The notes under the pieces are model-generated. The model worked only from the letters and a program-made list of their open reading frames with translations, was not told the DNA's origin and did not search any database. From the IMG/VR virus record IMGVR_UViG_3300022602_000038, positions 76,721 to 140,720 of that record: DNA of 64,000 nt. The stretch is one strand, 5' to 3'. The position numbers and the translations under genes were made by a program. How positions within the stretch are numbered: the stretch's first letter is position 1; each line of letters starts with the position of its first letter. Positions 23,452-64,000 of this stretch are shown here, one piece after another. Origin of the DNA: a virus.

Positions 23452-23536
23452 TGGTGGGTACACTTGGACTCGAACCAAGGAAGCTGTGAAGCAGCAGATT
23501 TACAGTCTGCCGTAATTGCCGCTATACGATATACCC
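23452..23536 (-). tRNA. tRNA-Tyr(GTA)
   Basis: gcaga-CTGTAAA-tctgc anticodon arm, long variable arm, GGTTCGAGTCC, ACCA end. Confidence 0.95.
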
Positions 23537-27492: not shown

Positions 27493-28152
27493 TTAACCTT
27501 TAATGCAATGAGCTACTAATAGCCCGTTCCACCACCCTAGCTTATCACCGAATGTCATTGGTCCGCTTGGACCTTGAATAACTGTAGTATCAGCTACTAT
27601 TTGTTTATGATACTGTATAGATATATTGTTATCTCTTAAAGCATCCATAGTACCTCTTTGAACTTCCTCCCAGTTATAGTCATCTACTATCAATATAAAC
27701 TCTTTAGCTAAACTATTGTAATAATGAGCAATAGCTTTGTATTGTGAATCATAGCTATGCTCTCCATCATAAAAATATGTATTGATATCTTTAATACCGA
27801 AGTCTAACGGGTTAATTGCAAAGCAATCAGCATCCAAAAAATTAGCTCTATTGTCATAGTCTAATAATCGTCTAGTGTTTTTATGAAATTCTAATCGAGG
27901 ACCGGTAAATTGAGTAAAGTTATCTATTGCGATATGATAAGCAGGAGTGTTTTTATATAACGCAGATATTAATGTAGATCCTTTCCATGTACCTATTTCC
28001 AGGTAAGAAGTTTCTTGATTAATAATATTATTAAAAAAATGCCTTGTTTTATTACCAGACATTCCTTCTAAAGTTAATATTTCTGAAGTTAATTTGGATT
28101 CTTGAGCTTCAGCTTTTTTAACCGCTTGTATAATTGTTTCAGTAAAATTCAT
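27493..28152 (-). CDS. Class I SAM methyltransferase (Methyltransf_24-like)
   Basis: YLEIGTWKGS, FYDGEHSY, LIVDDYNW. Confidence 0.85.
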   Translation of the reverse strand: MNFTETIIQAVKKAEAQESKLTSEILTLEGMSGNKTRHFFNNIINQETSYLEIGTWKGSTLISALYKNTPAYHIAIDNFTQFTGPRLEFHKNTRRLLDYDNRANFLDADCFAINPLDFGIKDINTYFYDGEHSYDSQYKAIAHYYNSLAKEFILIVDDYNWEEVQRGTMDALRDNNISIQYHKQIVADTTVIQGPSGPMTFGDKLGWWNGLLVAHCIKG

Positions 28153-28712
28153 ATATTAAAGTAACACCAACATTGTTCTCCACAAAACAAACTATCATCA
28201 TCTTTATTAAAAAAATGTCTTACAGCTTGTCGTACTCCTTCATCATTATAATAATCATGACCTGCTATATGCCCACCTTTCTTTAATTTTGGAAACCAAG
28301 CTTTAAGGTCTTCTAATACCGCTTCATATGCATGATTAGCATCTATAAAAATAAACTCCAACGAACTGTCTGCAAATTGTTTAGCAGCTTCTACAGAATT
28401 TATACGTACAGGTTCTACAACATGTTCTACAGGTTTAATATTCTCTTTAAACAAATGCCACACTAAATCTTCGGGTACACTACTTGGATCTTTAAGATTT
28501 AATCCGTCAACAGTAAATCTGTTCCATACATCTACCACGGTAAGTTTTATATCTTTCTTAGAATTAATAATCTCTACTGCCATATAAGCAGTGGAAGCGC
28601 CTTGAAACGCCCCTACTTCCACGAAATGTGCATTATCATACTGCTTAACCATATGAGCATATAGTTGCGGAAATGTAAACCAACCGGGTATCTTATAATG
28701 AAAATGTTCCAC
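28149..28712 (-). CDS. Class I SAM methyltransferase (Methyltransf_24-like)
   Basis: FVEVGAFQGAS, FIFIDANHAYE, GGHIAGHDY. Confidence 0.9.
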   Translation of the reverse strand: MEHFHYKIPGWFTFPQLYAHMVKQYDNAHFVEVGAFQGASTAYMAVEIINSKKDIKLTVVDVWNRFTVDGLNLKDPSSVPEDLVWHLFKENIKPVEHVVEPVRINSVEAAKQFADSSLEFIFIDANHAYEAVLEDLKAWFPKLKKGGHIAGHDYYNDEGVRQAVRHFFNKDDDSLFCGEQCWCYFNI

Positions 28713-29856: not shown

Positions 29857-30393
29857 TTATCTGTATTGTTTTTTTAATAAACGCCATGTCGGGCTATCAA
29901 TAACGACTTTACCATCATCGATGTTTTCAATCATACTGAGAGCTTGATCAATAGTGTTGTATATATATTTATGTTTAAGTTGCCCCATAAGCCATAAAGG
30001 CGTATTTTCTTTACCACCTTCAATAACGACAAATATAGGTTTTCGTGAAGCTACAGCGGTAGATAGTTCTTCAGCTGTACCCCAACTAGCAGTGCTCGGT
30101 ATAATATAAGCAATAATAAAATCCGATCTATCTACTAAGTTAAGATCAAATCTACGAATAGTCTTAGCCCATTCAGTTACTTTATCGTATTCTCCGTTTT
30201 TCATATGTTGACGCATACGAATACGTACATCTGGTGATTCGTCGCTATCACTAATAAACGGTTTTTTGTACGGGTTAAAAACTGTAATGTTGCGTGGTAA
30301 TAAAGAGCTTTCTACTTTTTCTCTCCAGTTACTACCATCAGCATACTCCATTGCTCCAATAGTATAACATTTAGTACGATATAATGTATTCAT
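29857..30393 (-). CDS. Nucleoside 2-deoxyribosyltransferase / NMP N-glycosidase-like protein
   Basis: Y..G.M...WR...VFNP...DL..VD.SD...SWGTAEE motifs. Confidence 0.75.
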   Translation of the reverse strand: MNTLYRTKCYTIGAMEYADGSNWREKVESSLLPRNITVFNPYKKPFISDSDESPDVRIRMRQHMKNGEYDKVTEWAKTIRRFDLNLVDRSDFIIAYIIPSTASWGTAEELSTAVASRKPIFVVIEGGKENTPLWLMGQLKHKYIYNTIDQALSMIENIDDGKVVIDSPTWRLLKKQYR

Positions 30394-30396
30394 ATA

Positions 30397-30960
30397 TTAA
30401 ATGTTAATTATTTTATGTAATTCTTCAAGAGAATTAATCATTATATCTGCTAAACCTACATTTATAATTTCAATACCTACGTAATGATGGTATTCTGAAG
30501 TAAGGCTATGTTCTTTATGTTTATAACCACAATCTGCTAATCTTTGAGCAATATAGTTTTCCCGACCTTCTTGAAAGTCTACATCGCTTTTTTGTACTTT
30601 ATGTGGTAATTCAGACATAGAATAAATTGAACCATGCATCATTGCAACAGCACCTGGCATTACAATACGCTTACCTTTCGTACCTGATGCAAGTAAAAAG
30701 GTACCGGTACTTTGAGCATTAGATGGTACTAGTATAGCTACATCACTTTTTAAAAGCTTAAACACGTTCGCTAAAAAAATACCATCTTCAATATTACCAC
30801 CATCAGAATTAATAATTAAAAGTATATCTTTATTAGACTTTTTATCTAACAGAAACAACTGTCTTACTATTTCTGCAGCGCTAGATTCGGTAATTTCTCC
30901 GCTGAGAATTATTACTCGCTCACTTCCAAGCGTTTTAATTGTTTTTCTATTTGTAGGCAT
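30397..30960 (-). CDS. clpP: ClpP-like protease subunit
   Basis: RVIILSGEI, LIINSDGG, AQSTG (Ser), KGKR, MMHG (His), GLAD. Confidence 0.8.
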   Translation of the reverse strand: MPTNRKTIKTLGSERVIILSGEITESSAAEIVRQLFLLDKKSNKDILLIINSDGGNIEDGIFLANVFKLLKSDVAILVPSNAQSTGTFLLASGTKGKRIVMPGAVAMMHGSIYSMSELPHKVQKSDVDFQEGRENYIAQRLADCGYKHKEHSLTSEYHHYVGIEIINVGLADIMINSLEELHKIINI

Positions 30961-33011: not shown

Positions 33012-34070
33012 TTATCGCACTAAACTACGTAATTCTGCCTCTGATACAGTAGCTGTAAAGCCGTCAGGGATACCTTTAACAATACATCCAATAGCATCAT
33101 GAGAATGTAAGCTTTCTAAATGACTGCATACAATTTTAAAGTCTACTACTCGCTTTTCTTTATTGAACTCCTCGTACAATAAACGAGATGCATCTTCAAC
33201 AAACTTAAGATATGCGCCGTTTAATTCAGCAAAAGCTTGTTCATCTTCTCTCTTAACCATTACTTGTGTTTCTGTTTTAAGAGCATTTAAGCACATTTGC
33301 TGTATTTCTTCAAACCAAATATGGTCGTTGTATTTTAACGATATACGGGCTGTAGAACGTTGTGAATGAGACACGACTGCTTTATTACGATGCTTACGAG
33401 CGTGTTCACCTAATTCAAAAGAACAAGGACAAGCAGAGGAATAAACAAAATCAAAATGTACAATTTTATCAAATACACCTTGTTGGTTTAAGTTACACTC
33501 AATAGCAATATTATAGTATTGATAACCTGCATTGCCGGAACGCAAACTCTGTTGAATGATAGGATAAGATATTTTAAGAATAATCTTTGCGTCAAATGTT
33601 TGTAAGTTCTTTTTGTAAAGTTTTAAAACATCTTCAATATAGTTAGCATCAAATACGTTATCTTTATGCTCATAAAAAGAACGAATAATACGCGACATAT
33701 TAATACCTTTCTTTTCAGCAGCTAAAGAAACTGTACCTGTAACAGCAGTTTCTAATTCAATAACTGATCCATCTGCTTTTGTCCATTTAAGTGGTAATTT
33801 AAAATTATGAATACCTACTTGTTGAATAGCTACCTTTGCACCTTGTATTAGAGATGAAGGTCCGTTCTGTAAATCAGGTAAAGTAGCAATATAATTAGAG
33901 TCTACTTTAAGATTAGTATCGTAGTTACGATCAGGTTCCTTGTAACCTAAATTTGCTTTACTAAAATCTATAGTATTAGTATTTTCTTTATCTTCGCCAA
34001 GCCAATCGTATGTTTGAGTATTTGTGTTTTTCACGTGTATAAAATTTTCTCCTGTTGTATATGTTTTCAT
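33012..34070 (-). CDS. folE2: GTP cyclohydrolase IB (FolE2)
   Basis: LPDLQ, IQQVGI, KGINMSR, SACPCS, SHSQRS, VKREDEQAFAE, FVEDA.R, H.ESLHSHDA. Confidence 0.95.
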   Translation of the reverse strand: MKTYTTGENFIHVKNTNTQTYDWLGEDKENTNTIDFSKANLGYKEPDRNYDTNLKVDSNYIATLPDLQNGPSSLIQGAKVAIQQVGIHNFKLPLKWTKADGSVIELETAVTGTVSLAAEKKGINMSRIIRSFYEHKDNVFDANYIEDVLKLYKKNLQTFDAKIILKISYPIIQQSLRSGNAGYQYYNIAIECNLNQQGVFDKIVHFDFVYSSACPCSFELGEHARKHRNKAVVSHSQRSTARISLKYNDHIWFEEIQQMCLNALKTETQVMVKREDEQAFAELNGAYLKFVEDASRLLYEEFNKEKRVVDFKIVCSHLESLHSHDAIGCIVKGIPDGFTATVSEAELRSLVR

Positions 34071-37934: not shown

Positions 37935-38231
37935 TCATGATTTTAACACCTCTCTCACAACTTTGCTACGGCATAAGTTAGGATTATACCGTAAAAATAG
38001 CAATAACGCTTCTCTTTCACTATCTAATTGTACCATTCTCATAAAGATCTTTTTATAGACCTTATTTTTAACAATCAATGAAAAAATTGTAACACTATTA
38101 AGTTTTTTATTATGTATAATAGAACAGAAAGAACTAAACTTAATCAATTCAAACTCTATCTCTTCATCCGTTAAAGAACTTAGCGGGTTATTAATAACTG
38201 CATCTTGTAAGGCACCAATTACACCGGACAT
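37935..38231 (-). CDS. Hypothetical protein
   Basis: 98-aa coupled ORF. Confidence 0.6.
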   Translation of the reverse strand: MSGVIGALQDAVINNPLSSLTDEEIEFELIKFSSFCSIIHNKKLNSVTIFSLIVKNKVYKKIFMRMVQLDSEREALLLFLRYNPNLCRSKVVREVLKS

Positions 38232-39142
38232 TACACTACTGAGGTTAATTGTTTAGTGAATTCCATGAATGCGTCGGTAACCTTACCGCCTGCAGCATAT
38301 TCATGTCCACCGCCTTCACAAAGCTTAGCTGATAGCTTTGAAAGATCTATTGTACAGTTCTTATTTTTTCTAAAAGAAACGTGAGAATTGTTAGGGTTAA
38401 TAAAAAATACTATATCTGAACTATGTTCTTTAATCAAATAATCACAAATTTCGTTAACAAACTTGCTTCCCATTGTACCGGTAACTTTCCAGGGTGTTTT
38501 GTTGAGATTTACAGTACCTGAAAATATTTGTAAGTTTTTTATGGTTAAATCTCTATTTGTTATATGATCTTTAATTAGATTTTTTTCCATTTGGGTAAAC
38601 TGATCAAAACCATTATAAAATCTCTCTAAAAACTTATGTGAACGAGTCTTGTCTAATGTACGCTGCGTGTTAGTATACAAACAATTTAAGTTGTAAGTTT
38701 CTTTATGCTTAAATTGATAACTGTCATAATCATCTGCTAACACTATAAACTGCCTTTGCTCAGGGGTTAATGTTAATTTATCTTTAAAATGATTATATAC
38801 TAGCTTTGCACATGAACTCGTTACAGTAATATTTGTTTTTGCGTTTTTATACTGACTCTTTACTTTTTCATGAGTAGAATGATGATCAATTATAATTGAT
38901 TTCGGGTTATCAATTAAGTCAATACAGTTGCCAGTATCTAAATCTAAAAAATAAACAGCATCGTAATTATTGATACTATCAGTTTCAGCCCATTTTAAAA
39001 ACTCTTTTCTAAAATTAGTAACAGTTACGCCTTTGAAAGGTATAGTGCCTGGTTTTGCATTTAACGCCCAATGCAGAGCAATTAGACTTGCAGTTCCGTC
39101 TAAATCTATATCTGTAAAAACGTATATATTGTTACTACTCAC
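38231..39142 (-). CDS. DHH/DHHA1 phosphoesterase
   Basis: DIDLDG, FLDL, IIDHH, SFR, GGGHEYAAGG. Confidence 0.9.
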   Translation of the reverse strand: MSSNNIYVFTDIDLDGTASLIALHWALNAKPGTIPFKGVTVTNFRKEFLKWAETDSINNYDAVYFLDLDTGNCIDLIDNPKSIIIDHHSTHEKVKSQYKNAKTNITVTSSCAKLVYNHFKDKLTLTPEQRQFIVLADDYDSYQFKHKETYNLNCLYTNTQRTLDKTRSHKFLERFYNGFDQFTQMEKNLIKDHITNRDLTIKNLQIFSGTVNLNKTPWKVTGTMGSKFVNEICDYLIKEHSSDIVFFINPNNSHVSFRKNKNCTIDLSKLSAKLCEGGGHEYAAGGKVTDAFMEFTKQLTSVV

Positions 39143-40520: not shown

Positions 40521-40525
40521 ATTAT

Positions 40526-40557
40526 AAAAAAAGCTAAGGTTGCCCTTAGCTTTTTTT
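40526..40557. terminator. Intrinsic terminator after uvsX
   Basis: A7-GCTAAGG-ttgc-CCTTAGC-T7. Confidence 0.85.
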
Positions 40558-40560
40558 GTT

Positions 40561-41705: not shown

Positions 41706-42050
41706 TTAGCTTTTGTCGTCAGCGTCAAAAAGCTTAATAGTAGGAGCTGCTGTATCAGCAGGCTTAAACATTTCTATGTATTGTGCAACAAGATTTGCTT
41801 CTAGTTCAATATTTGAAGCAATAGCTACATTTTCTAAACTATAAGTCCAGTTTGGTGCAACGTCTCTGTTCTTTAAGAATTCCCTAAAAAGTAGAGGGTA
41901 GAGCTGTACTTGTAATTTCTTTTCATTAGTAGGAGCTACGTTTAAGATAGCTGGCTTAGTAATGGTTAAGGTAGTATCAGTCTGTTCTACTAAGGTAGCA
42001 ACAATAGTGCGTTGAATATTATCAAGAAAAACAATAATTTTTGGTTCCAT
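41706..42050 (-). CDS. Hypothetical protein (possible Sm-like fold)
   Basis: IVATL...LTITKPA.L...QLYP pattern; own TTGATT...TATAAT promoter. Confidence 0.55.
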   Translation of the reverse strand: MEPKIIVFLDNIQRTIVATLVEQTDTTLTITKPAILNVAPTNEKKLQVQLYPLLFREFLKNRDVAPNWTYSLENVAIASNIELEANLVAQYIEMFKPADTAAPTIKLFDADDKS

Positions 42051-42086: not shown

Positions 42087-43013
42087 TTATTGACGAGGAA
42101 ATTTATGATAAAGAGCTTTAGGATTAACTAAATTACTATCCAATAAATCTTTGTGAGATGCTCTAGTAGGTACAATATCCCAACCGCCACGACGAGCGTA
42201 AAAACATGTTACTAAAAGCTCTTGTGGTTCTAGTAAGTCCCAAAGACGCTTATAAGCGGCTTCGCAAATTTCTTCATGAAAATGGCACTCATTACGTAAT
42301 GAAACAACCCATTCAAGTAAAGAATTTTCGTTGACTGCTTTATTCCCTTTATAATAGATATAAATGTCTCCGGAATCTGGCTGCTTGGTGATCTTACAAT
42401 TAGAACGTAAAAGAGAGCTCATATAATGACCCTCTACAGTACCTACTGATTTATTATTAATTTTTAATAAATCTGGTGTTTCGTTAAACACTGTAAATTT
42501 AAGCTTTTCTGCTTTAGGTATATTTTCAAGTACGGTCCAACCATAAGGTTCTTCAGTATTATATACATCAAAGAGTCTATTATCAAAATGTTCTTTACTC
42601 AGTAATTGAGAGAACAGTTCTACCTTTACATTCGTTTCAAGTAATAAAGAAAGGTCCTTCTCTGCTGTCTTTTTAATGTTCTTAAGTACTTGAGCACTGG
42701 TTTTACCCATATGCTGCATATTAAATGAATTCCAGTAAAGTTTCATTGATTTAGATTCTACAATGAAATCATTTGTACAAGGATATACTACTTTTGCAAC
42801 ACAAGTAACAGGCAAGCCTTTATCTGTTAATGCACTACATTCATAGCCGTTCCAAATATCATAACCTACAAACGGTAGGTCTTTATTCTTAAGATCGAGG
42901 TACGTACGATTGCGTTGACGTTCTTCTCGAACCAATATTTCAGGTGTATAAGTAGTTGGAGAATCTACTCTTTGTCCAAGTACTTTGTCAATATTATTAG
43001 TGTTATAGCTCAT
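42087..43013 (-). CDS. queF: preQ0 reductase QueF (bimodular type)
   Basis: DIWNGYE, VESKSMKLYWNSFN, LRSNCKITKQPD (catalytic Cys), FHEEICE, YARRGG. Confidence 0.95.
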   Translation of the reverse strand: MSYNTNNIDKVLGQRVDSPTTYTPEILVREERQRNRTYLDLKNKDLPFVGYDIWNGYECSALTDKGLPVTCVAKVVYPCTNDFIVESKSMKLYWNSFNMQHMGKTSAQVLKNIKKTAEKDLSLLLETNVKVELFSQLLSKEHFDNRLFDVYNTEEPYGWTVLENIPKAEKLKFTVFNETPDLLKINNKSVGTVEGHYMSSLLRSNCKITKQPDSGDIYIYYKGNKAVNENSLLEWVVSLRNECHFHEEICEAAYKRLWDLLEPQELLVTCFYARRGGWDIVPTRASHKDLLDSNLVNPKALYHKFPRQ

Positions 43014-43578
43014 TTGTAAAATCTTTTTGTATTTCAGTAATTACTTTGTTAACTCTTTCTTCAACAGTACCCATCACATAAACAAGTTTATCTGTAGGCA
43101 TTGAGTGATGTTTGATATAAAAATCAAATTGTTTTACCACTCCATCAAAAAACTCTCTACCTGTACTTCTTTCCCCATCGTCTTTTAAATCAAGTTCAGG
43201 TACAATATAGAAAATCTTATCATAGGTCTTTATTAATTGTTCATAGATGCTTAGGGCAGCTTGATATATCTCCTTGTTAATTTGACCCTTTTCATAAAAA
43301 TATGAAGTGTAGGATATACCATCTAAAGCACCTCTATCTAATACCCAGTTACCTGGAGTTAAAGCAAATTCTAAGTGTCTAGCCATCACCAAGTATTGCG
43401 TTAAAGATGTACCTCCTTCATTAATAGGTACATTTAAATCTTTTAAACCTCTAGTTAAATTAGTTCTAAATGAAAAATGATTGTCGTCTAAAAACAATTC
43501 ATTCTTTAGAGCTTTTACTAAAGTAGTTTTACCTTGTGAATGAGCGCCACATATAGCAGCTTTATAATTAGTTCTCAT
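43003..43578 (-). CDS. P-loop nucleotide monophosphate kinase-like protein (AAA_28/NadR-like)
   Basis: GAHSQGKTT, LDRGALD...Y, DDGER. Confidence 0.75.
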   Translation of the reverse strand: MRTNYKAAICGAHSQGKTTLVKALKNELFLDDNHFSFRTNLTRGLKDLNVPINEGGTSLTQYLVMARHLEFALTPGNWVLDRGALDGISYTSYFYEKGQINKEIYQAALSIYEQLIKTYDKIFYIVPELDLKDDGERSTGREFFDGVVKQFDFYIKHHSMPTDKLVYVMGTVEERVNKVITEIQKDFTNEL

Positions 43579-44159
43579 AGTTTATTATTTAATATTTTAT
43601 TCTTCATAAACGCAACCCAATTATTAATTGCAAGTTTATGTAAATCCTCAATAAATAAATCCAAACTTTTAAAATCCGTATACAAATCTTCTGTTTTAAA
43701 ACTTGTCTCTGAAACGACCCTACCAGCATCTACTTCTGGTATAACTTCATGAATAACATGTCCATGTACATTATACTTTTTTGTGGGGTATGTTTGCCAC
43801 ACTTTAGCTTGTGGATCTTTACCTTTTAATTCAGGAAATTTAGTAATAAGACCAGGGTGACCGTTATATATTTTAAATTTACTGCATATCTCTGGTGGTA
43901 CAATACGAAGAAACCCGTGTAATGTAATTATATCAGTAAATTTAATAGCTTCTCTATATTCTTGTACAGTTGGCTTTTTAGGTATAAAAATAAAACGATC
44001 AAAACATCTTTCAAGAAATTTTGGGTTAATTTTATCTAAATCTTCAAAGCTTTTATTAGTAATAATTGCATCTGGAAATCGCCCTATCTTTGTAGATAGT
44101 TCATATATCTCAGAACCACTCTGAGAAAAAAATGCTTTCCAGATTATATTGCGTTTCAT
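43575..44159 (-). CDS. PurN-like formyltransferase (candidate DpdN)
   Basis: FFSQSGSE, LHGFLRIVP, YNGHPG, HEVIPEVDAG. Confidence 0.85.
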   Translation of the reverse strand: MKRNIIWKAFFSQSGSEIYELSTKIGRFPDAIITNKSFEDLDKINPKFLERCFDRFIFIPKKPTVQEYREAIKFTDIITLHGFLRIVPPEICSKFKIYNGHPGLITKFPELKGKDPQAKVWQTYPTKKYNVHGHVIHEVIPEVDAGRVVSETSFKTEDLYTDFKSLDLFIEDLHKLAINNWVAFMKNKILNNKL

Positions 44160-44386
44160 ATATTTAAGCGAAACCCTATTGTATTATCACTAAAAAAAAT
44201 TACAAGGGTAAAATCAACAATACCGTGTTTTATTAGGTAAGGTTTAACATCAGATAGTTCTTTTACTGGGAGTTCACAATTACGAATACAATCCCAAAAA
44301 TAATAATTCCGAACAGAAACATTATCTGCCAAGAGGTGGGGGTAATTTGCATGAACAGAATTAGTTATAGCTTCTAAAGTTGTCAT
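44156..44386 (-). CDS. Small hypothetical protein within the deazaguanine module
   Basis: 76 aa, ATGA-coupled on both sides. Confidence 0.65.
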   Translation of the reverse strand: MTTLEAITNSVHANYPHLLADNVSVRNYYFWDCIRNCELPVKELSDVKPYLIKHGIVDFTLVIFFSDNTIGFRLNI

Positions 44387-45189
44387 CCATTAACGTAATT
44401 TCTAAACTCAATTAAATTACTTGCAATGATTCTTTCTTGTATTGTGTCTGGTACTACATCTAACAGATCTACAAGCTTAGTAGACTCTTTTTTCCAGTTA
44501 CCTATTGCGTCAGTGTATCTTATTCTTTTAATACCATGAACAATAGGAGATGATGTATCTAATGTTTCGATCCAATTATATTCAGGACCTTGATAGAAAC
44601 TAAACTCTCTCGGGTGAGCACAACCTAGTAAGTGATGAGGTTTGTCTTTATTAATAATACCATCGTTCATTAATTGGGTGAGTGTTATTACTCTACCCAT
44701 CATATAAGATACCCACTTGTTAGGGTGCGGAAATAGTTTAAGATAATAAGAGTAATCGAACGATATAGCTAATTTATCTACATCAATTTCTTGATCTAAA
44801 GTTACATAACATTTAACTAACTCTGCATAAGTTTTACCTTGTACAACACCGATAGTTTTAGAGTTATTAAGAAAATCCCACTCTCTCCATAGACATTTCT
44901 TAGCAGATTCAATTGTACCGTTACAATCTTCTAATACATCTGGTATAATATATTCAGTGGGATTAAGCTTTTCTATCCAGTAAGCATAACGTTTAGAATC
45001 AAAAGCTGTACCTAATTCAAATATAGAGTTATCTAATAGAACATGTCTACCTTGTTCTAAACTATCTACAAAGAAGGAATAATAATCAGCATGATGTTCA
45101 AATAAATGCACTAATGCATAATCATAATCGTTGTATGTACGAGACATCTCGAGCATACTTAAAGGAGATTCGTGAGAAATTTTAATCAT
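44383..45189 (-). CDS. Divergent TGT-like guanine transglycosylase (candidate DpdA3-type)
   Basis: LLDNSIFE, IIPDV, GVVQG, HHLLG, LDTSSP match the order of TGT/DpdA barrel motifs; next to polB and QueF. Confidence 0.7.
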   Translation of the reverse strand: MIKISHESPLSMLEMSRTYNDYDYALVHLFEHHADYYSFFVDSLEQGRHVLLDNSIFELGTAFDSKRYAYWIEKLNPTEYIIPDVLEDCNGTIESAKKCLWREWDFLNNSKTIGVVQGKTYAELVKCYVTLDQEIDVDKLAISFDYSYYLKLFPHPNKWVSYMMGRVITLTQLMNDGIINKDKPHHLLGCAHPREFSFYQGPEYNWIETLDTSSPIVHGIKRIRYTDAIGNWKKESTKLVDLLDVVPDTIQERIIASNLIEFRNYVNG

Positions 45190-47750
45190 GAGAATAAATT
45201 AAATAAGTCTGTTTGTACTTCGCTATTAGTTTGTGGTAATTGCCAGTTAAGAGCGTCATATACAGCTTTAACTGGTGGTGTTATAATAGTATCGAACATT
45301 TCTTGATAATCAACTTGAAAATCGTTTAATTCCGGTGGAAAAGTACCTGTATAACATAGAGTATCAATATTATACTTGTTACCTGCAATGTAAATTTTCT
45401 TTACTTTACCGCCAGATGTAATTCTTTCGTACTTGTTTTCAAGATTTCTATGTTTTAATAGCTGATTATACCAAATAGCACCTTTTACGTGATTTGGAGT
45501 ACCTTTTGATATTTTAAATCCTTCAGCCTTGACTTCATGCTTTTCAATATCACTTAAACCGCCTCTAATAGCGATATCATCAGTAGAAAGCTTCTTAAAC
45601 GTATCGTAAACCTCTCTATATAGAGTATTAGCTTTATTATGATCTTGACCTAACAAACTATTTTCAATGACTCGCTTAATAAGTTCTTTAGCTTTTTTAG
45701 GTGTAGTAGAACGTGCAATTTCAACTCCAACGTATTTAAACTTATTAACATCAGCACCTTCATCGTTTAATACGTGTATAATATAACGTTTCTTTTGTAG
45801 GTAAACACCTACATCACAAATAGATTCTCTCTTAAAAAAGTAACGAGGGTCAATAGATTTAAACTCAGATGCAGACCATTTCTTAATCTCACTATTTAAA
45901 TATGTACCTATTTCTTTATCTATCAGGTTTAATCCCTCTGGGGTTACTTTACCCTCAGCAAATAGCTTTATCTTAAGCTTATCAACAATTGGTTGAATAG
46001 TAACATGAGTACTGTCAGTGTCACCATATATATTAAGAGAAACGTCAACTCCGTATTGCTCTTTAGCATATGTATCAAGGATAACACCTGCTTGTTTAAC
46101 CACCGACTGACCAGTAAGAGTAATGCTACCGGCGTGATCACTATCACAAATAGGGCTAAACTTATTAGCAAAAACACCGTAGATAGAATTAAGAAGAATC
46201 TTAATGACGTGCTGTATGGTGTCAGCTCGTTCCATATTAGACTTACACGTTTTGTACTCATCTGTATTTGGGGTTAATTTACTTAGCTTCTTTTTATAGT
46301 CTATATACTCATTTTTGTTTTTTACACGTTCACTGTAAAGACCATCAATTAAAGATGGTACAACACCTTTTTTCTTTTGAGTATACAGTACACCTGCTTT
46401 AGATATAGCTAGCTTTTCAACTTCTAAAAACCTATCAAACTTACTAGCAGTTATTTCATGAGTATTACCGCTAGCTGTAAGCAACGTAACTGTTTCATCT
46501 GTACGCTTTAATATCTTACCCATTTTAGTTTCAGGTGATATATTAAGAGTAATAATGGTATTAGGATATAGAGAGTTAGCATCATAACTAACAATAGAAG
46601 TTTTTAAACCTCTTTCTGGTTCTCTTACATAACCGCCGTCAATTTCATCTCTTAGTGGTCCGCCCACGAAAGTTGGTATAATCATGCCGTGTTTATAAGC
46701 TTCTAACGCAACACAACCAGTAACAATAGATACCTTACCTAAAGCAGCTTCAAAACTTGTTAGTCCTTTTGTCGCTAACATGCGAATGATTTTAAAGAGC
46801 TGTAATTTACGCTCCATTCTGACAAGCAGTTCAACATCTTGAATATTATAATTAACAAAGTTATTCCAATCGCTTTGAGATAAAGTAGCTAGGTTTGTAG
46901 CATTAATAGCTAGTTTACCTTCTCCGAGCTCGTGTTCTGCAACAAAGTTAAGAGAGTATGATTCAAGTAATTGACGTGAGAATCCCTTATACACTTCAAG
47001 ATAATCCATAGCTGCAATGCCATGTATGTACCACTTATCTAATTTCTGTCCTTTAACAAATATCCCCTCTCTACACCATACGCTATTTACAGGTGATAAT
47101 CTCTTAGCTGCACCATCTCCGAAGATACTTGTAAGACGATTAATAATGTAAGGAAAGTCGAAAAAGTCTGTATTCCAACCAGTAAGAATATCTGGGTAAT
47201 TATCGTCTTTTTCAAAGAATTCGATAAACTTACTGAGCATATCTACTTCGTTTTTACATAATGTGTAAATTACATTCTTTCTGTCAGTACTGTACGGACT
47301 ACATCCCCAAGTATAAAAATTTTCAGATAGATTATCGTAAACTGTTATAAGATTAATAGGGTGCTTAGCGTCTTTAGCTTCCGGAAATTCATCTGGAGAA
47401 TAAACTTCAATATCTAAGAAAAATATCTTAAGTGGAAACTTAGTAAACTCAGGTTTATCGTATTCGTCTTTAAACGTATCTATAAGAAACTGCTGTTCTA
47501 CTTGAATGTTGTGGTATAGTCGCTTAATAGCGCCATCTTGAGACGCTCTATTACGTTCGTAGCTATTTTTATAAACCTTCTTTTTAAGTTTAGTATTAAA
47601 AATAGATAAAGCGTCAGCCGTATCAAGATTAGTTTCTATGTAGAAATAAGGTAAATGTGGTTGTTTTTTTACAACACGATTACCATTTTCATCCCATGTA
47701 AAAAGATGACAGATACTATCTTTTGAACTATAATAAACGTTTCGGTACAC
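45186..47750 (-). CDS. Family B DNA polymerase (gp43)
   Basis: LDIE, GWN...FD, YNIQD, YDANSLYP, KILLNSIYG, YGDTDS, KKRY; C-terminal QTDLFNLF clamp-binding-like tail; GTG start. Confidence 0.97.
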   Translation of the reverse strand: MYRNVYYSSKDSICHLFTWDENGNRVVKKQPHLPYFYIETNLDTADALSIFNTKLKKKVYKNSYERNRASQDGAIKRLYHNIQVEQQFLIDTFKDEYDKPEFTKFPLKIFFLDIEVYSPDEFPEAKDAKHPINLITVYDNLSENFYTWGCSPYSTDRKNVIYTLCKNEVDMLSKFIEFFEKDDNYPDILTGWNTDFFDFPYIINRLTSIFGDGAAKRLSPVNSVWCREGIFVKGQKLDKWYIHGIAAMDYLEVYKGFSRQLLESYSLNFVAEHELGEGKLAINATNLATLSQSDWNNFVNYNIQDVELLVRMERKLQLFKIIRMLATKGLTSFEAALGKVSIVTGCVALEAYKHGMIIPTFVGGPLRDEIDGGYVREPERGLKTSIVSYDANSLYPNTIITLNISPETKMGKILKRTDETVTLLTASGNTHEITASKFDRFLEVEKLAISKAGVLYTQKKKGVVPSLIDGLYSERVKNKNEYIDYKKKLSKLTPNTDEYKTCKSNMERADTIQHVIKILLNSIYGVFANKFSPICDSDHAGSITLTGQSVVKQAGVILDTYAKEQYGVDVSLNIYGDTDSTHVTIQPIVDKLKIKLFAEGKVTPEGLNLIDKEIGTYLNSEIKKWSASEFKSIDPRYFFKRESICDVGVYLQKKRYIIHVLNDEGADVNKFKYVGVEIARSTTPKKAKELIKRVIENSLLGQDHNKANTLYREVYDTFKKLSTDDIAIRGGLSDIEKHEVKAEGFKISKGTPNHVKGAIWYNQLLKHRNLENKYERITSGGKVKKIYIAGNKYNIDTLCYTGTFPPELNDFQVDYQEMFDTIITPPVKAVYDALNWQLPQTNSEVQTDLFNLFS

Positions 47751-47782: not shown

Positions 47783-48964
47783 TCAAGAAAAATATAGTCT
47801 CGTGAACTCATCAATATGATCTTCTAACCAGTATTTAGATGCAACTTTACGAGCACTATCAGATTCTGTAAGGTAAATACGGCGATCCGATAAGACCTTT
47901 TTAAGTTTATCAATCATTTCATCTGCTGTATTGAAACGTAAAGGTGCTACCGGAGATGTATTATACGGTGTTAAATCTTGACATATACATGGTAAGCCTA
48001 GTGCACCAGCTTCTAAATACTTAATTGGTGCTTTAGCTAAATTAAATTTGTTATTTTGTAGTGGAGCGATAGCCGCGTTTAAGTTTAAACTACTAAATGC
48101 AGCAGGGTAGTTCCAAATAGTAGCCCATGGTGTATACTCAATGTCACCGCTTCTTACTAAGTGATGCAGTTCTTGAGGTACACCACCCATTAAAACCCAC
48201 TTAAAGTACTTAGATGTTTTAATAATAACATCTGCAATATCACCGAAGTCGTCTTTTATACCTGGTACATTGGCAACATTAAAGTGTGTGGGGCTGCCAA
48301 TATAACCTACCCTTGGACGTTTCTTATTTGCTTCGTAATTTTCTGTAATTTTTACTTTACTATAAAATCTGTCCATCCAGAACTTAGGCATGTAATTAGG
48401 TAATGTTATACCTTTTACCCCAGTTTTTTCTTGATAATATTTTGACATGTAGTCTGTAGGGGTTGTAATACCGTCACATAACTGCATAATCTTTTCAGCT
48501 GTTTGAGTTATAGTCGGATCTACAAACGCTTCTCTAGCTTTATTGTACAGTGGTATATCATCTGGATATATTACATCGTCAATATCATAGTAAATCTTAA
48601 ACTTGTTTGTTTTGTTAGAAACTGCCCTTAAATACTGTACAAATTGTAATTGGGTAGGAGTAACCTGTCTTTGTATTCTTACAGAACTAATTCCATCATA
48701 AAAATTATCCTGTAAAATCATAAAATTATTATTGTTAATAATTCCTAATTGATTGCCGTTTATTACTGTTTCTGGCCAATGAATTCTCCAGAAACCACAA
48801 CCTTGATGATCTGCAGCATAACTTACAGCTCTTTTAGTACCGCCTGGTAATCCTGTAACTGGAGCAGAAGGTTGTACTGTTTCATTTACTAATGGACTAC
48901 CAAAAGCAGGAGCTCCTAAAGGTAGTTGTGGAGCACCAAATACTCCGTTATTAAGATTTATCAT
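47783..48964 (-). CDS. Glycosyltransferase (GT-B-like)
   Basis: GCGFWRI.WP, YDIDD, LPNY, VGYIGSPTH, IAPL..N.FN.AK..IKYLE. Confidence 0.75.
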   Translation of the reverse strand: MINLNNGVFGAPQLPLGAPAFGSPLVNETVQPSAPVTGLPGGTKRAVSYAADHQGCGFWRIHWPETVINGNQLGIINNNNFMILQDNFYDGISSVRIQRQVTPTQLQFVQYLRAVSNKTNKFKIYYDIDDVIYPDDIPLYNKAREAFVDPTITQTAEKIMQLCDGITTPTDYMSKYYQEKTGVKGITLPNYMPKFWMDRFYSKVKITENYEANKKRPRVGYIGSPTHFNVANVPGIKDDFGDIADVIIKTSKYFKWVLMGGVPQELHHLVRSGDIEYTPWATIWNYPAAFSSLNLNAAIAPLQNNKFNLAKAPIKYLEAGALGLPCICQDLTPYNTSPVAPLRFNTADEMIDKLKKVLSDRRIYLTESDSARKVASKYWLEDHIDEFTRLYFS

Positions 48965-63322: not shown

Positions 63323-63359
63323 CGGTTGAATTTTAAGTTTTTTGTGTTACTATACGTAT

Positions 63360-63824
63360 ATGGGCAAATATACGTCTACAAAAGTAATTCCGTTAGGTTC
63401 TTGTGCATTTCGTCAACCTTTCGCAAAAAGCCATTGTCGGTTATTACATGGTTACCGTTTACAAGCTAAATTTTGGTTTGAATGTAATGAACTAGATGAA
63501 AATAACTGGGTAGTAGATTTCGGTGGTCTTAAAGGTCTTAAGTCTTCTTTAGAAGAAACATTTGATCATACAACTTGTGTATGGATTAAAGACCCAGAAA
63601 TAGATACCTTTAAAGATCTACATACTAAAGGTATAGTTGATCTTAGAACTTTTACTGACGGGGTGGGTATTGAAAAGTTTGCACAGTTTTGTTATAACCA
63701 AGCAAATTTATATGTAAAAGGTTTAACTAAAGAAAGATGCTGGTGTTCTAAAGTAGAGGTATGGGAACATGAAGGCAATAGTGCATGCTATGAAACAATT
63801 TATAACGGTGAGTGGAAAAGTTAA
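63360..63824 (+). CDS. queD: 6-carboxytetrahydropterin synthase QueD
   Basis: SHCRLLHGY, WVVDFG, FDH, VEVWE; start taken at MGKYTS. Confidence 0.9.
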   Translation: MGKYTSTKVIPLGSCAFRQPFAKSHCRLLHGYRLQAKFWFECNELDENNWVVDFGGLKGLKSSLEETFDHTTCVWIKDPEIDTFKDLHTKGIVDLRTFTDGVGIEKFAQFCYNQANLYVKGLTKERCWCSKVEVWEHEGNSACYETIYNGEWKS

Positions 63825-63845: not shown

Positions 63846-64000
63846 ATGAGCGAAATTAATTCTAATAAAACCCTATTCTTATCTGATGATTTTGTATTCT
63901 ATACACTAGAAGGAGAAGGTCGTTATATTGGTTACCCTTCAGTGTTTATGAGATTATCAATGTGTAATCTCACATGTATTGGTTTTAAGAGTGAGGATGC
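63846..64000 (+). CDS. queE: 7-carboxy-7-deazaguanine synthase QueE (radical SAM), 3'-truncated
   Basis: Manual translation MSEINSNK...FYTLEGEGRYIGYPSVFMRLSMCNLTC. Confidence 0.9.
   Translation, partial: MSEINSNKTLFLSDDFVFYTLEGEGRYIGYPSVFMRLSMCNLTCIGFKSED

Follow-up and report, generated by a model that had tools for sequence, protein, structure and literature searches.

A DpdA3/DpdN-type 7-deazaguanine module chained to the DNA polymerase gene of an uncultured T4-like phage, with fdPreQ1 as its predicted DNA base

Which base replaces guanine in phages that carry a DpdA3/DpdN system, and at what stage is it brought in, given that DpdA3 phages reach 100% replacement whereas other DpdA subfamilies reach 0.1–30%? 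We addressed this question through a locus in a 64,000-nt window, the whole stretch of DNA analysed here, which makes up the right-hand end of an IMG/VR viral contig 140,720 bp long (IMGVR_UViG_3300022602_000038; ~65% complete according to CheckV). The window has a G+C content of ~32% and carries T4-like replication genes (PolB, UvsX and gp32). On its minus strand, the genes for PolB, a protein resembling tRNA-guanine transglycosylase (TGT), a small protein (orf76), a PurN-like formyltransferase, a kinase and QueF form a single chain with successive overlaps of 4, 4, 4, 4 and 11 nt, the first being that of the PolB stop with the start of the TGT-like gene. An earlier sequence-only reading had described six genes overlapping in this way, and the open reading frame (ORF) coordinates and strand bear it out. 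The locus is a further phage lineage with the published DpdA3/DpdN system and is ordinary for its kind.

The reference point for this system is Flavobacterium phage immuto, the sole phage with a measured fdPreQ1 content: its DNA contains 345,000 fdPreQ1 per 10^6 nt, and dG could not be detected in it. The study of immuto also named DpdA3 and DpdN (Cui et al. 2023, PMC10516641). In immuto, the order is DpdA, a 50-aa ORF, a PurN-like formyltransferase, a 'thymidylate kinase' and QueF, with PolA two genes further. The TGT-like protein of the window is 50.7% identical to immuto DpdA over its full length (tblastn, 8e-78), while DpdN, in the same gene position, is 43% identical, QueF 41% and the kinase 33% (immuto gp203). 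By sequence and gene order, the module is orthologous and syntenic to the immuto DpdA3–DpdN–kinase–QueF block. When the module was compared with GenBank phages by megablast, nothing matched; its relatives are detectable at the protein level only. The product in this phage is very probably an fdPreQ1-type DNA base. The proposal that guanines in this genome are replaced by fdPreQ1 is supported by homology only, namely by orthology and synteny with immuto, the TGT fold and the catalytic residues.

Fold and family comparison placed the TGT-like protein, marked out for such a check by the sequence-only reading, in the TGT fold and the DpdA3 subfamily. Its AlphaFold (AF2) model (pLDDT 96.2, pTM 0.92) gave 229 Foldseek matches at E≤1e-3, the best at 8e-9, and the best 50 of these 229 were all TGTs. 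VIA-align superposed ~232 of its 268 residues on Z. mobilis TGT and archaeosine TGT (Z 17.9, r.m.s.d. ~3.2 Å). Judged by the model, DpdA3 is a trimmed TGT-type (beta/alpha)8 TIM barrel without the zinc-binding cysteine cluster. The sequence also matches the unnamed phrog_19058 (9e-52) and, over its full length, a hypothetical protein of CP220-like Campylobacter phages (tblastn, 42% identity, ~3e-47). No Pfam family matched, and TIGR00449 reached only E 0.003 and 16 bits, against a cut-off of 47.6.

In an alignment of 66 diverse DpdA3 representatives (34–66% identity), D53, E58, P83-D84, R166, H186, L188-G189, D211, P215 and N258 are invariant. The top PDB sequence match of the family profile, a weak one (E 0.26), is the bacterial DpdA 7ui4, and it lies exactly over the HLLG...D-[ST]-x-x-P block; D211 belongs to this block, whose counterpart in 7ui4 is the S-I-D-S nucleophile region. 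Three aspartates, serving as general acid/base, in base recognition and as nucleophile, are invariant in TGT and DpdA, with the nucleophile in the HLLG...D-[ST]-x-x-P region (Gedara et al. 2023, PMC10164549). From the order of the motifs, D53 and D84 would take up the general acid/base and base recognition roles. The predicted reaction of DpdA3 is a guanine/7-deazaguanine exchange, which in the published model would take place in DNA.

The same fold is that of enzymes acting on tRNA, and among the phage's own genes is one for tRNA-Tyr(GUA) (23452–23536), a possible substrate. We nevertheless consider it very improbable that the TGT-like enzyme modifies tRNA rather than DNA. About 140 TGT residues are missing, including any Cys-rich zinc motif (the four cysteines are scattered and form no CxCxxC), and the nearest characterised relatives are DNA-modifying phage systems in which G is fully replaced. 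Queuosine modification of tRNA has no use for a formyltransferase, a kinase or a complete de novo pathway, and DpdA3 relatives occur widely in phage contigs that retain this module.

Longer forms of DpdA3 occur in metagenomic sequences. Two are natural DpdA3::DpdN fusions (P0135 and P0260, 447 aa each) without an orf76-like linker, which is independent evidence that both enzymes act together. Three others carry different additions: P0127 (475 aa) has a C-terminal NUMOD3 (homing-endonuclease) motif, P0164 (586 aa) a 317-aa N-terminal extension and P0247 (419 aa) a 160-aa C-terminal extension, the latter two matching no family.

DpdN matches Pfam Formyl_trans_N (3.1e-6) and TIGR PurN (3.2e-8, below the PurN equivalog cut-off). 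The best matches of its profile are PurN structures (9e-12), with Met-tRNA formyltransferase at 8e-5. Its invariant positions are N99-G-H101-P, D144 and an F-S-Q-x-G-S-E loop; the Asn/His/Asp triad of PurN is thus kept, and the FSQxGSE loop aligns with the N-terminal loop by which PurN binds the 5'-phosphate of its substrate, glycinamide ribonucleotide (GAR). The gene is under purifying selection (dN/dS 0.16). On the contig, it keeps company with DpdA3, FolE2, QueD, the QueE stub and QueF, while QueC is seen only in the long relatives (five of five). DpdN is always linked to, and sometimes fused with, DpdA3, and hence its predicted substrate is a preQ1 species. Sequence comparison predicts that DpdN formylates the aminomethyl group of preQ1; its function is a prediction in immuto as well (Cui et al. 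2023, PMC10516641).

We then asked whether the phage could make preQ1. QueF scores above the cut-offs of Pfam QueF_N (3.3e-28) and QueF (3.4e-17), reaches 221 bits with TIGR03138 (2.6e-65; equivalog cut-off 293) and keeps the motif ESKSMKLY and the catalytic Cys in SNCKITKQPD. FolE2, QueD and QueE had been read as lying elsewhere in the window. Domain matches uphold FolE2 and QueD, whereas QueE is there only as a 51-codon 5' fragment in the last 154 bases of the contig. All five NCBIfam matches of this stub are QueE models (best 1.6e-5), and it is 96% identical to the start of the full 267-aa QueE in a 122.7-kb relative (G001). Neither the generic Radical_SAM model nor immuto QueE gave a QueE match on the contig, because only 51 codons are present.

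QueC, unseen in the sequence-only reading, was not found in the window or anywhere on the 140,720-bp contig. The contig ends at the right edge of the window; past the corresponding point, QueC scores over the cut-off in all five long relatives (full length in four, cut by the contig end in G003). In G001, QueD is followed by QueE, several small genes and then QueC, whose start is 5.4 kb after that of QueD, a spacing that puts QueC ~4.7 kb past the end of the studied contig. Since QueC lies just beyond this point in five of five long relatives, the deazaguanine pathway is most likely complete in the phage and cut off in the assembly.

A 2-oxoglutarate (2OG)-Fe(II) oxygenase gene (PF13759, TIGR02466; 34067–34672, minus strand) overlaps the FolE2 stop. 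In two unrelated DpdA3 lineages (L106, 5966–6580; L110, 5452–6021), such a gene stands immediately between those for FolE and DpdA3, and the enzyme may be an accessory to the deazaguanine pathway.

These genes also bear on whether the DNA is modified with an end product other than fdPreQ1, be it plain dPreQ1 or a derivative made via a glycosyltransferase or the 2OG-Fe(II) oxygenase, or whether the pathway is incomplete. In favour of this, QueC and most of QueE are unseen on the contig, the function of DpdN is predicted only, a glycosyltransferase gene is conserved upstream of PolB and the oxygenase gene overlaps FolE2. The relatives also vary, one lacking both DpdN and QueF (L088) and two lacking DpdN (L117 and L120). 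However, all catalytic motifs are intact, DpdN is kept under purifying selection, QueC is present in all long relatives and immuto, for which the product has been measured, has the same set of genes. We therefore regard a different product as unlikely and retain an fdPreQ1-type base as the predicted one.

How widely the module is kept was examined at two depths. The order glycosyltransferase–PolB–DpdA3–orf76–DpdN–kinase–QueF–orf114–UvsX is maintained in 52 IMG/VR loci (83–93% DpdA3 identity) wherever the contig reaches; the chain is not a chance arrangement, because the same order recurs in every related contig long enough. A second scan with the family alignment recovered loci down to 49% DpdA3 identity and on other backbones, with PolA, or with FolE instead of FolE2. 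From the 80 best matches to the window DpdA3, and so covering the fdPreQ1-like clade, we drew 34 dereplicated loci, each extending for at least 2.5 kb downstream. Among the genes following DpdA3, the kinase was found in 34 of the 34, QueF in 33, DpdN in 31 and orf76 in 6. The module adjoins a replicative polymerase in lineages whose polymerases are unrelated: PolB here, and PolA in L124, L130 and Bacillus phage BSTP12. As a whole, the DpdA3 family comprises 4,129 metagenomic clusters at 90% identity and 1,634 representatives at 50%, none with a Pfam assignment.

The kinase is retained where other members of the module are missing. L088 (7001–10151; 59% DpdA3 identity) has the order PolB–DpdA3–orf76–kinase–orf114–UvsX without DpdN and QueF, and presumably inserts a different 7-deazaguanine; its gene content reduces the minimal core to DpdA3 and the kinase. 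The kinase is likewise kept in L117 and L120, and it follows DpdA3 in CP220 (gp057), which makes a different base. In L117 (6120–7076), which has QueF and no DpdN, the 319-aa kinase ORF contains a full AAA_28 domain followed by a weak C-terminal match to GNAT acetyltransferases (E 0.0023, below cut-off). As a lead only, L117 may be an acetyl-preQ1 variant.

To which family does this constant partner belong? The window protein scores 34.5 bits (2.9e-8) with Pfam AAA_28, against a cut-off of 27, and its relatives match over their full length down to 7e-22. The best PDB match of the profile is the ribosylnicotinamide-kinase (RNK) domain of NadR (9x6f, 1e-4), the best thymidylate kinase structure reaching 0.02. 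'Thymidylate kinase' is the label of phrog_2107, which it matches at 5e-23, and also a GenBank label, but the protein has no match to Pfam Thymidylate_kin. Besides the Walker A motif G11-x4-G-K-T, the positions R43, INE52-54, TQ60-61, H68, E70, R82, D86 and D134-G-x-R-S are invariant, and this pattern suggests a specific small-molecule pocket. The word 'kinase' is absent from the main text of the paper that defined DpdA3 and DpdN (Cui et al. 2023, PMC10516641).

More distant DpdA3-like genes (25–29% identity) occur in Bacillus phage BSTP12 (L134, 3896–6692) and Chryseobacterium phage MA9V-3 (L135, 2806–5774), and in both a small P-loop protein precedes the DpdA3-like gene. A hidden Markov model of the window-type kinase (A1-type) missed these P-loop neighbours; with Pfam, that of MA9V-3 falls in AAA_18/AAA_33 and that of BSTP12 gives a weak P-loop match only. 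The MA9V-3 gene is preceded by a dCTP-deaminase-like gene as well as by the AAA_18/AAA_33 kinase. The BSTP12 gene, wrongly named 'NadR' in GenBank, has an overlap with the start of the DNA polymerase I gene. Neither phage is mentioned in the text of Cui et al. 2023 (PMC10516641) that we consulted.

Under the published model, FolE2, QueD, QueE, QueC and QueF would convert GTP to preQ1, DpdA3 would put the 7-deazaguanine in the place of guanine by way of an intermediate bound covalently to an aspartate, and DpdN would add a formyl group, donated by a formyl-folate, to the aminomethyl group. The resulting 7-(formylamino)methyl-7-deazaguanine (fdPreQ1) would replace most or all G and block restriction enzymes. 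The swap would take place on replicated DNA, the P-loop protein acting as an ATP-using helper, by analogy with DpdB, or as a feeder from nucleotide salvage, and the chaining to polB would bring about co-expression with replication. We consider this base swap on replicated DNA to be close to an even call. Polynucleotides are the substrates of all characterised TGT-superfamily enzymes, and bacterial DpdA requires an ATPase as its partner (PMC10164549), so the P-loop protein could be such a helper. A further point counted for a DNA-level swap is that no dGTP-clearing enzyme (MazG, PRA-PH or HD dNTPase) was found on the contig or in the relative G001.

Besides the absence of QueC and of most of QueE from the contig, several observations weigh against this model. 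Complete base replacement classically proceeds via the nucleotide pool. The DpdA3 partner belongs to a family of small-molecule kinases (AAA_28/NadR-RNK) and is not a ParB-like DpdB, while DpdN is a bare PurN core with the substrate-phosphate loop of PurN. DpdA3 itself is acidic (pI 5.4; range 5.4–6.1), pI being weak evidence only, and has no added nucleic-acid-binding domain. Attempts with DpdA3 in E. coli have failed (Cui et al. 2023, PMC10516641), for which the constant kinase suggests a simple reason, DpdA3 having been expressed alone.

The same observations fit a route by which the same product is made in the nucleotide pool before replication. DpdA3 would exchange the base of free deoxyguanosine, present as nucleotide or nucleoside; if this is true, DpdA3 would be the first TGT-family enzyme to act off polynucleotides. 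DpdN would formylate dPreQ1 5'-monophosphate, the AAA_28 kinase would phosphorylate the product, a cellular nucleoside diphosphate kinase would supply the triphosphate and the linked polymerase would incorporate it. In some lineages, dGTP would be cleared by a neighbouring MazG-like or HD enzyme.

We regard this route as plausible and as a little less likely than the swap on replicated DNA. It would account for a kinase of the NadR nucleoside kinase family that follows DpdA3 more regularly than DpdN or QueF do and that persists in CP220, and for the small P-loop proteins before the distant DpdA3-like genes. In immuto, DpdA3 has a MazG/PRA-PH NTP pyrophosphohydrolase as a neighbour; the complete genome G007 has one within the module, and G006 has one ~4.5 kb away from DpdA3. 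In CP220, an HD–kinase fusion is found next to DpdA3. DpdN is nearer to PurN than to Met-tRNA formyltransferase and shares the loop aligned with the GAR-phosphate loop, and dPreQ1 monophosphate would resemble GAR in that a few bonds separate an aminomethyl group from a ribose 5-phosphate. The acidic DpdA3 without an added binding domain and the adjacency of the module to unrelated replicative polymerases also fit. In addition, 100% replacement occurs only in DpdA3 phages, the ADG nucleoside was seen in cytoplasm from CP220-infected cells and DpdA3 alone failed in E. coli (PMC10516641).

On the other side, no TGT-family enzyme is known to use mononucleotides, the lineage studied here yielded no dGTP-clearing enzyme on the contig or in G001, and the published view is post-replicative. 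The DpdA3::DpdN fusions and the polymerase linkage fit both models. A nucleoside 2-deoxyribosyltransferase (NDT)/DNPH1-like gene in the window (29857–30393, minus strand) is a true member of its family (PF05014, 1e-9, above cut-off), but it is not conserved even in close relatives. We rejected it as a guanine-exclusion partner, since ten other DpdA3 phage records do not have it: immuto, CP220, three near-complete DpdA3 genomes and five contigs from the lineage of the window itself. It is probably a gene of nucleotide metabolism in its own right.

New comparative findings are the constancy of the kinase, the fusions of DpdA3 with DpdN and the PurN-like phosphate loop of DpdN, and all three bear on total replacement. 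Should the nucleotide route prove true, total G replacement in DpdA3 phages would be pre-replicative, and DpdA3, the kinase and DpdN would together be an enzymatic source of 7-deaza-dGTP analogues.

The remaining member of the chain, orf76, had been left unassigned in the sequence-only reading, and unassigned it stays. It is a real gene: its length is 76–79 codons throughout, its median dN/dS (0.15) is about the same as that of DpdN, and identity is 76–89% in close relatives and 42–54% in the most distant. Among the 34 loci, its occurrence is confined to the PolB lineage, where one relative (L080) lacks it. Its retention in L088, without DpdN and QueF, indicates that it goes with the transglycosylase–kinase pair and not with formylation. 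No family was found for it in Pfam, PHROGs, NCBIfam or Atlas, and only 13 sequence clusters, all close, were recovered. The AF2 model (pLDDT 90.3) begins with two helices, which are followed by a beta-hairpin, a third helix and another hairpin; it had no Foldseek match in PDB or BFVD at E≤0.001, and the wide VIA search gave a best Z of 3.5. Its two cysteines are not invariant, and it has no detectable similarity to immuto gp205 (50 aa), which occupies the same position. Our best guess for orf76 is a lineage-specific role, as an adaptor for DpdA3 or the kinase or as a regulator of one of them.

The features of the locus are collected in Table 1. A terminator scan found no convincing minus-strand terminator within the chain, and the hairpin just after UvsX is probably a bidirectional terminator closing the transcription unit that runs from the glycosyltransferase through PolB to UvsX. 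A promoter scan of the sequence was uninformative (54 sites, against 47 ± 7 in shuffles).

Table 1. Genes of the chain, precursor genes and terminator in the 64,000-nt window
Feature	Coordinates	Strand	Basis
PolB, family B DNA polymerase, T4 gp43-like	45186..47750	-	Pfam DNA_pol_B 3.9e-22, exo domain 5.4e-18; phrog_262 7.6e-189
DpdA3-subfamily guanine transglycosylase, 268 aa	44383..45189	-	immuto DpdA orthology, TGT fold model, invariant Asp
orf76, small protein	44156..44386	-	conserved length, dN/dS; without family match
DpdN, PurN-like formyltransferase (predicted)	43575..44159	-	Pfam Formyl_trans_N, TIGR PurN, immuto DpdN 43% identity
AAA_28 (NadR ribosylnicotinamide-kinase-like) P-loop kinase	43003..43578	-	Pfam AAA_28 2.9e-8
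QueF, bimodular NADPH-dependent preQ0 reductase (preQ0 to preQ1)	42087..43013	-	Pfam QueF_N and QueF
16-bp-stem hairpin with A and T runs on its flanks, just after UvsX	40524..40559		terminator scan
FolE2-type GTP cyclohydrolase I, 7-deazaguanine pathway step 1	33012..34070	-	PF02649 7.8e-66; NF010200 1e-76, above cut-off
QueD, 6-carboxytetrahydropterin synthase	63342..63824	+	PF01242 2.2e-16; 39.5% identity to immuto QueD
QueE, truncated to its 5' part of 51 codons (63846-63998)	63846..64000	+	five NCBIfam matches; contig end cuts gene

Other genes surround the chain. A GT-B-type glycosyltransferase gene (47783–48964, minus strand; phrog_7162 6e-23; Pfam match below cut-off) lies directly upstream of PolB and accompanies the chain in every relative of the PolB lineage. 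At the other end, orf114 (41706–42050, minus strand) always lies just upstream of UvsX; 54 positions are invariant in eight sequences, and the protein ends in an acidic tail (...IKLFDADD). We tried it as a MazG-like counterpart of immuto gp208 and rejected it: the protein is rich in beta structure, an EExxE motif is missing, and in L088, where QueF and DpdN are lacking, the gene is still found with UvsX. It may be a recombination or replication accessory factor. The same minus-strand block also contains two adjacent Methyltransf_24 S-adenosylmethionine-dependent methyltransferases, a ClpP-like protease and a DHH/DHHA1 phosphoesterase (27493–28712, 30397–30960 and 38231–39142).

How does the module compare with known systems? 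Phages that replace a base at the level of the nucleotide pool include T4, with hydroxymethylcytosine (hmC) made through a dCTPase, a dCMP hydroxymethylase and a dNMP kinase, and the Z-genome phages, with MazZ, DatZ and PurZ. The likeness to these lies in the logic of the layout only, a nucleotide-modifying enzyme and a kinase (plus a dNTPase in some lineages) standing beside replication genes. The central enzyme is without homology to theirs, and no dNTPase was found in the lineage studied here.

Compared with the bacterial and archaeosine TGTs, DpdA3 has the same fold over 232 residues, and base exchange is suggested by the conserved Asp, but the two are only ~12–15% identical, DpdA3 has 268 aa against ~370 aa and it lacks both the zinc subdomain and a match to Pfam TGT (PF01702). 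DpdN resembles PurN, the glycinamide ribonucleotide transformylase, in its best profile matches, its Asn-x-His and Asp residues and its phosphate-binding N-terminal loop, and differs from it in falling below the equivalog cut-off and in being linked to or fused with DpdA3. With the bacterial Dpd system (DpdA and the DpdB ATPase; PDB 7ui4), DpdA3 shares the TGT-type barrel, the invariant catalytic Asp and the HLLG...D-S-x-x-P block. Bacterial DpdA depends on an ATP-using partner, and a large insertion makes up 30% of its structure (Gedara et al. 2023, PMC10164549). It is larger than DpdA3, places preQ0 at rare sites (<0.1% of G) and has a ParB-like partner, whereas the partner here is of a nucleoside/nucleotide-kinase family and total replacement is to be expected.

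Closer to the window is the CP220 group of Campylobacter phages with dADG genomes, whose G is fully replaced (as cited in PMC10516641). These share DpdA3, followed directly by a kinase of the same family, but have no DpdN or QueF; their end base is ADG, an HD-phosphohydrolase/kinase fusion lies upstream and the locus is not beside a polymerase.

Closest of all is immuto, with the same order of DpdA3, small ORF, DpdN, kinase and QueF at 33–51% identity for the four named proteins. It likewise has QueD, QueE and a GTP cyclohydrolase, and its replicative polymerase is encoded nearby. In immuto, fdPreQ1 was measured in the DNA, while the phage studied here is known from a metagenomic contig. The small ORF has 76 aa here against 50 aa, FolE2 takes the place of FolE, and the MazG-like hydrolase and phosphoribosyltransferase of immuto were not seen here. 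PolA lies two genes downstream of the module in immuto, whereas here PolB lies directly upstream. These comparisons reveal a DpdA3/DpdN system that is abundant in uncultured phages and that is carried here on a T4-like backbone, chained to PolB.

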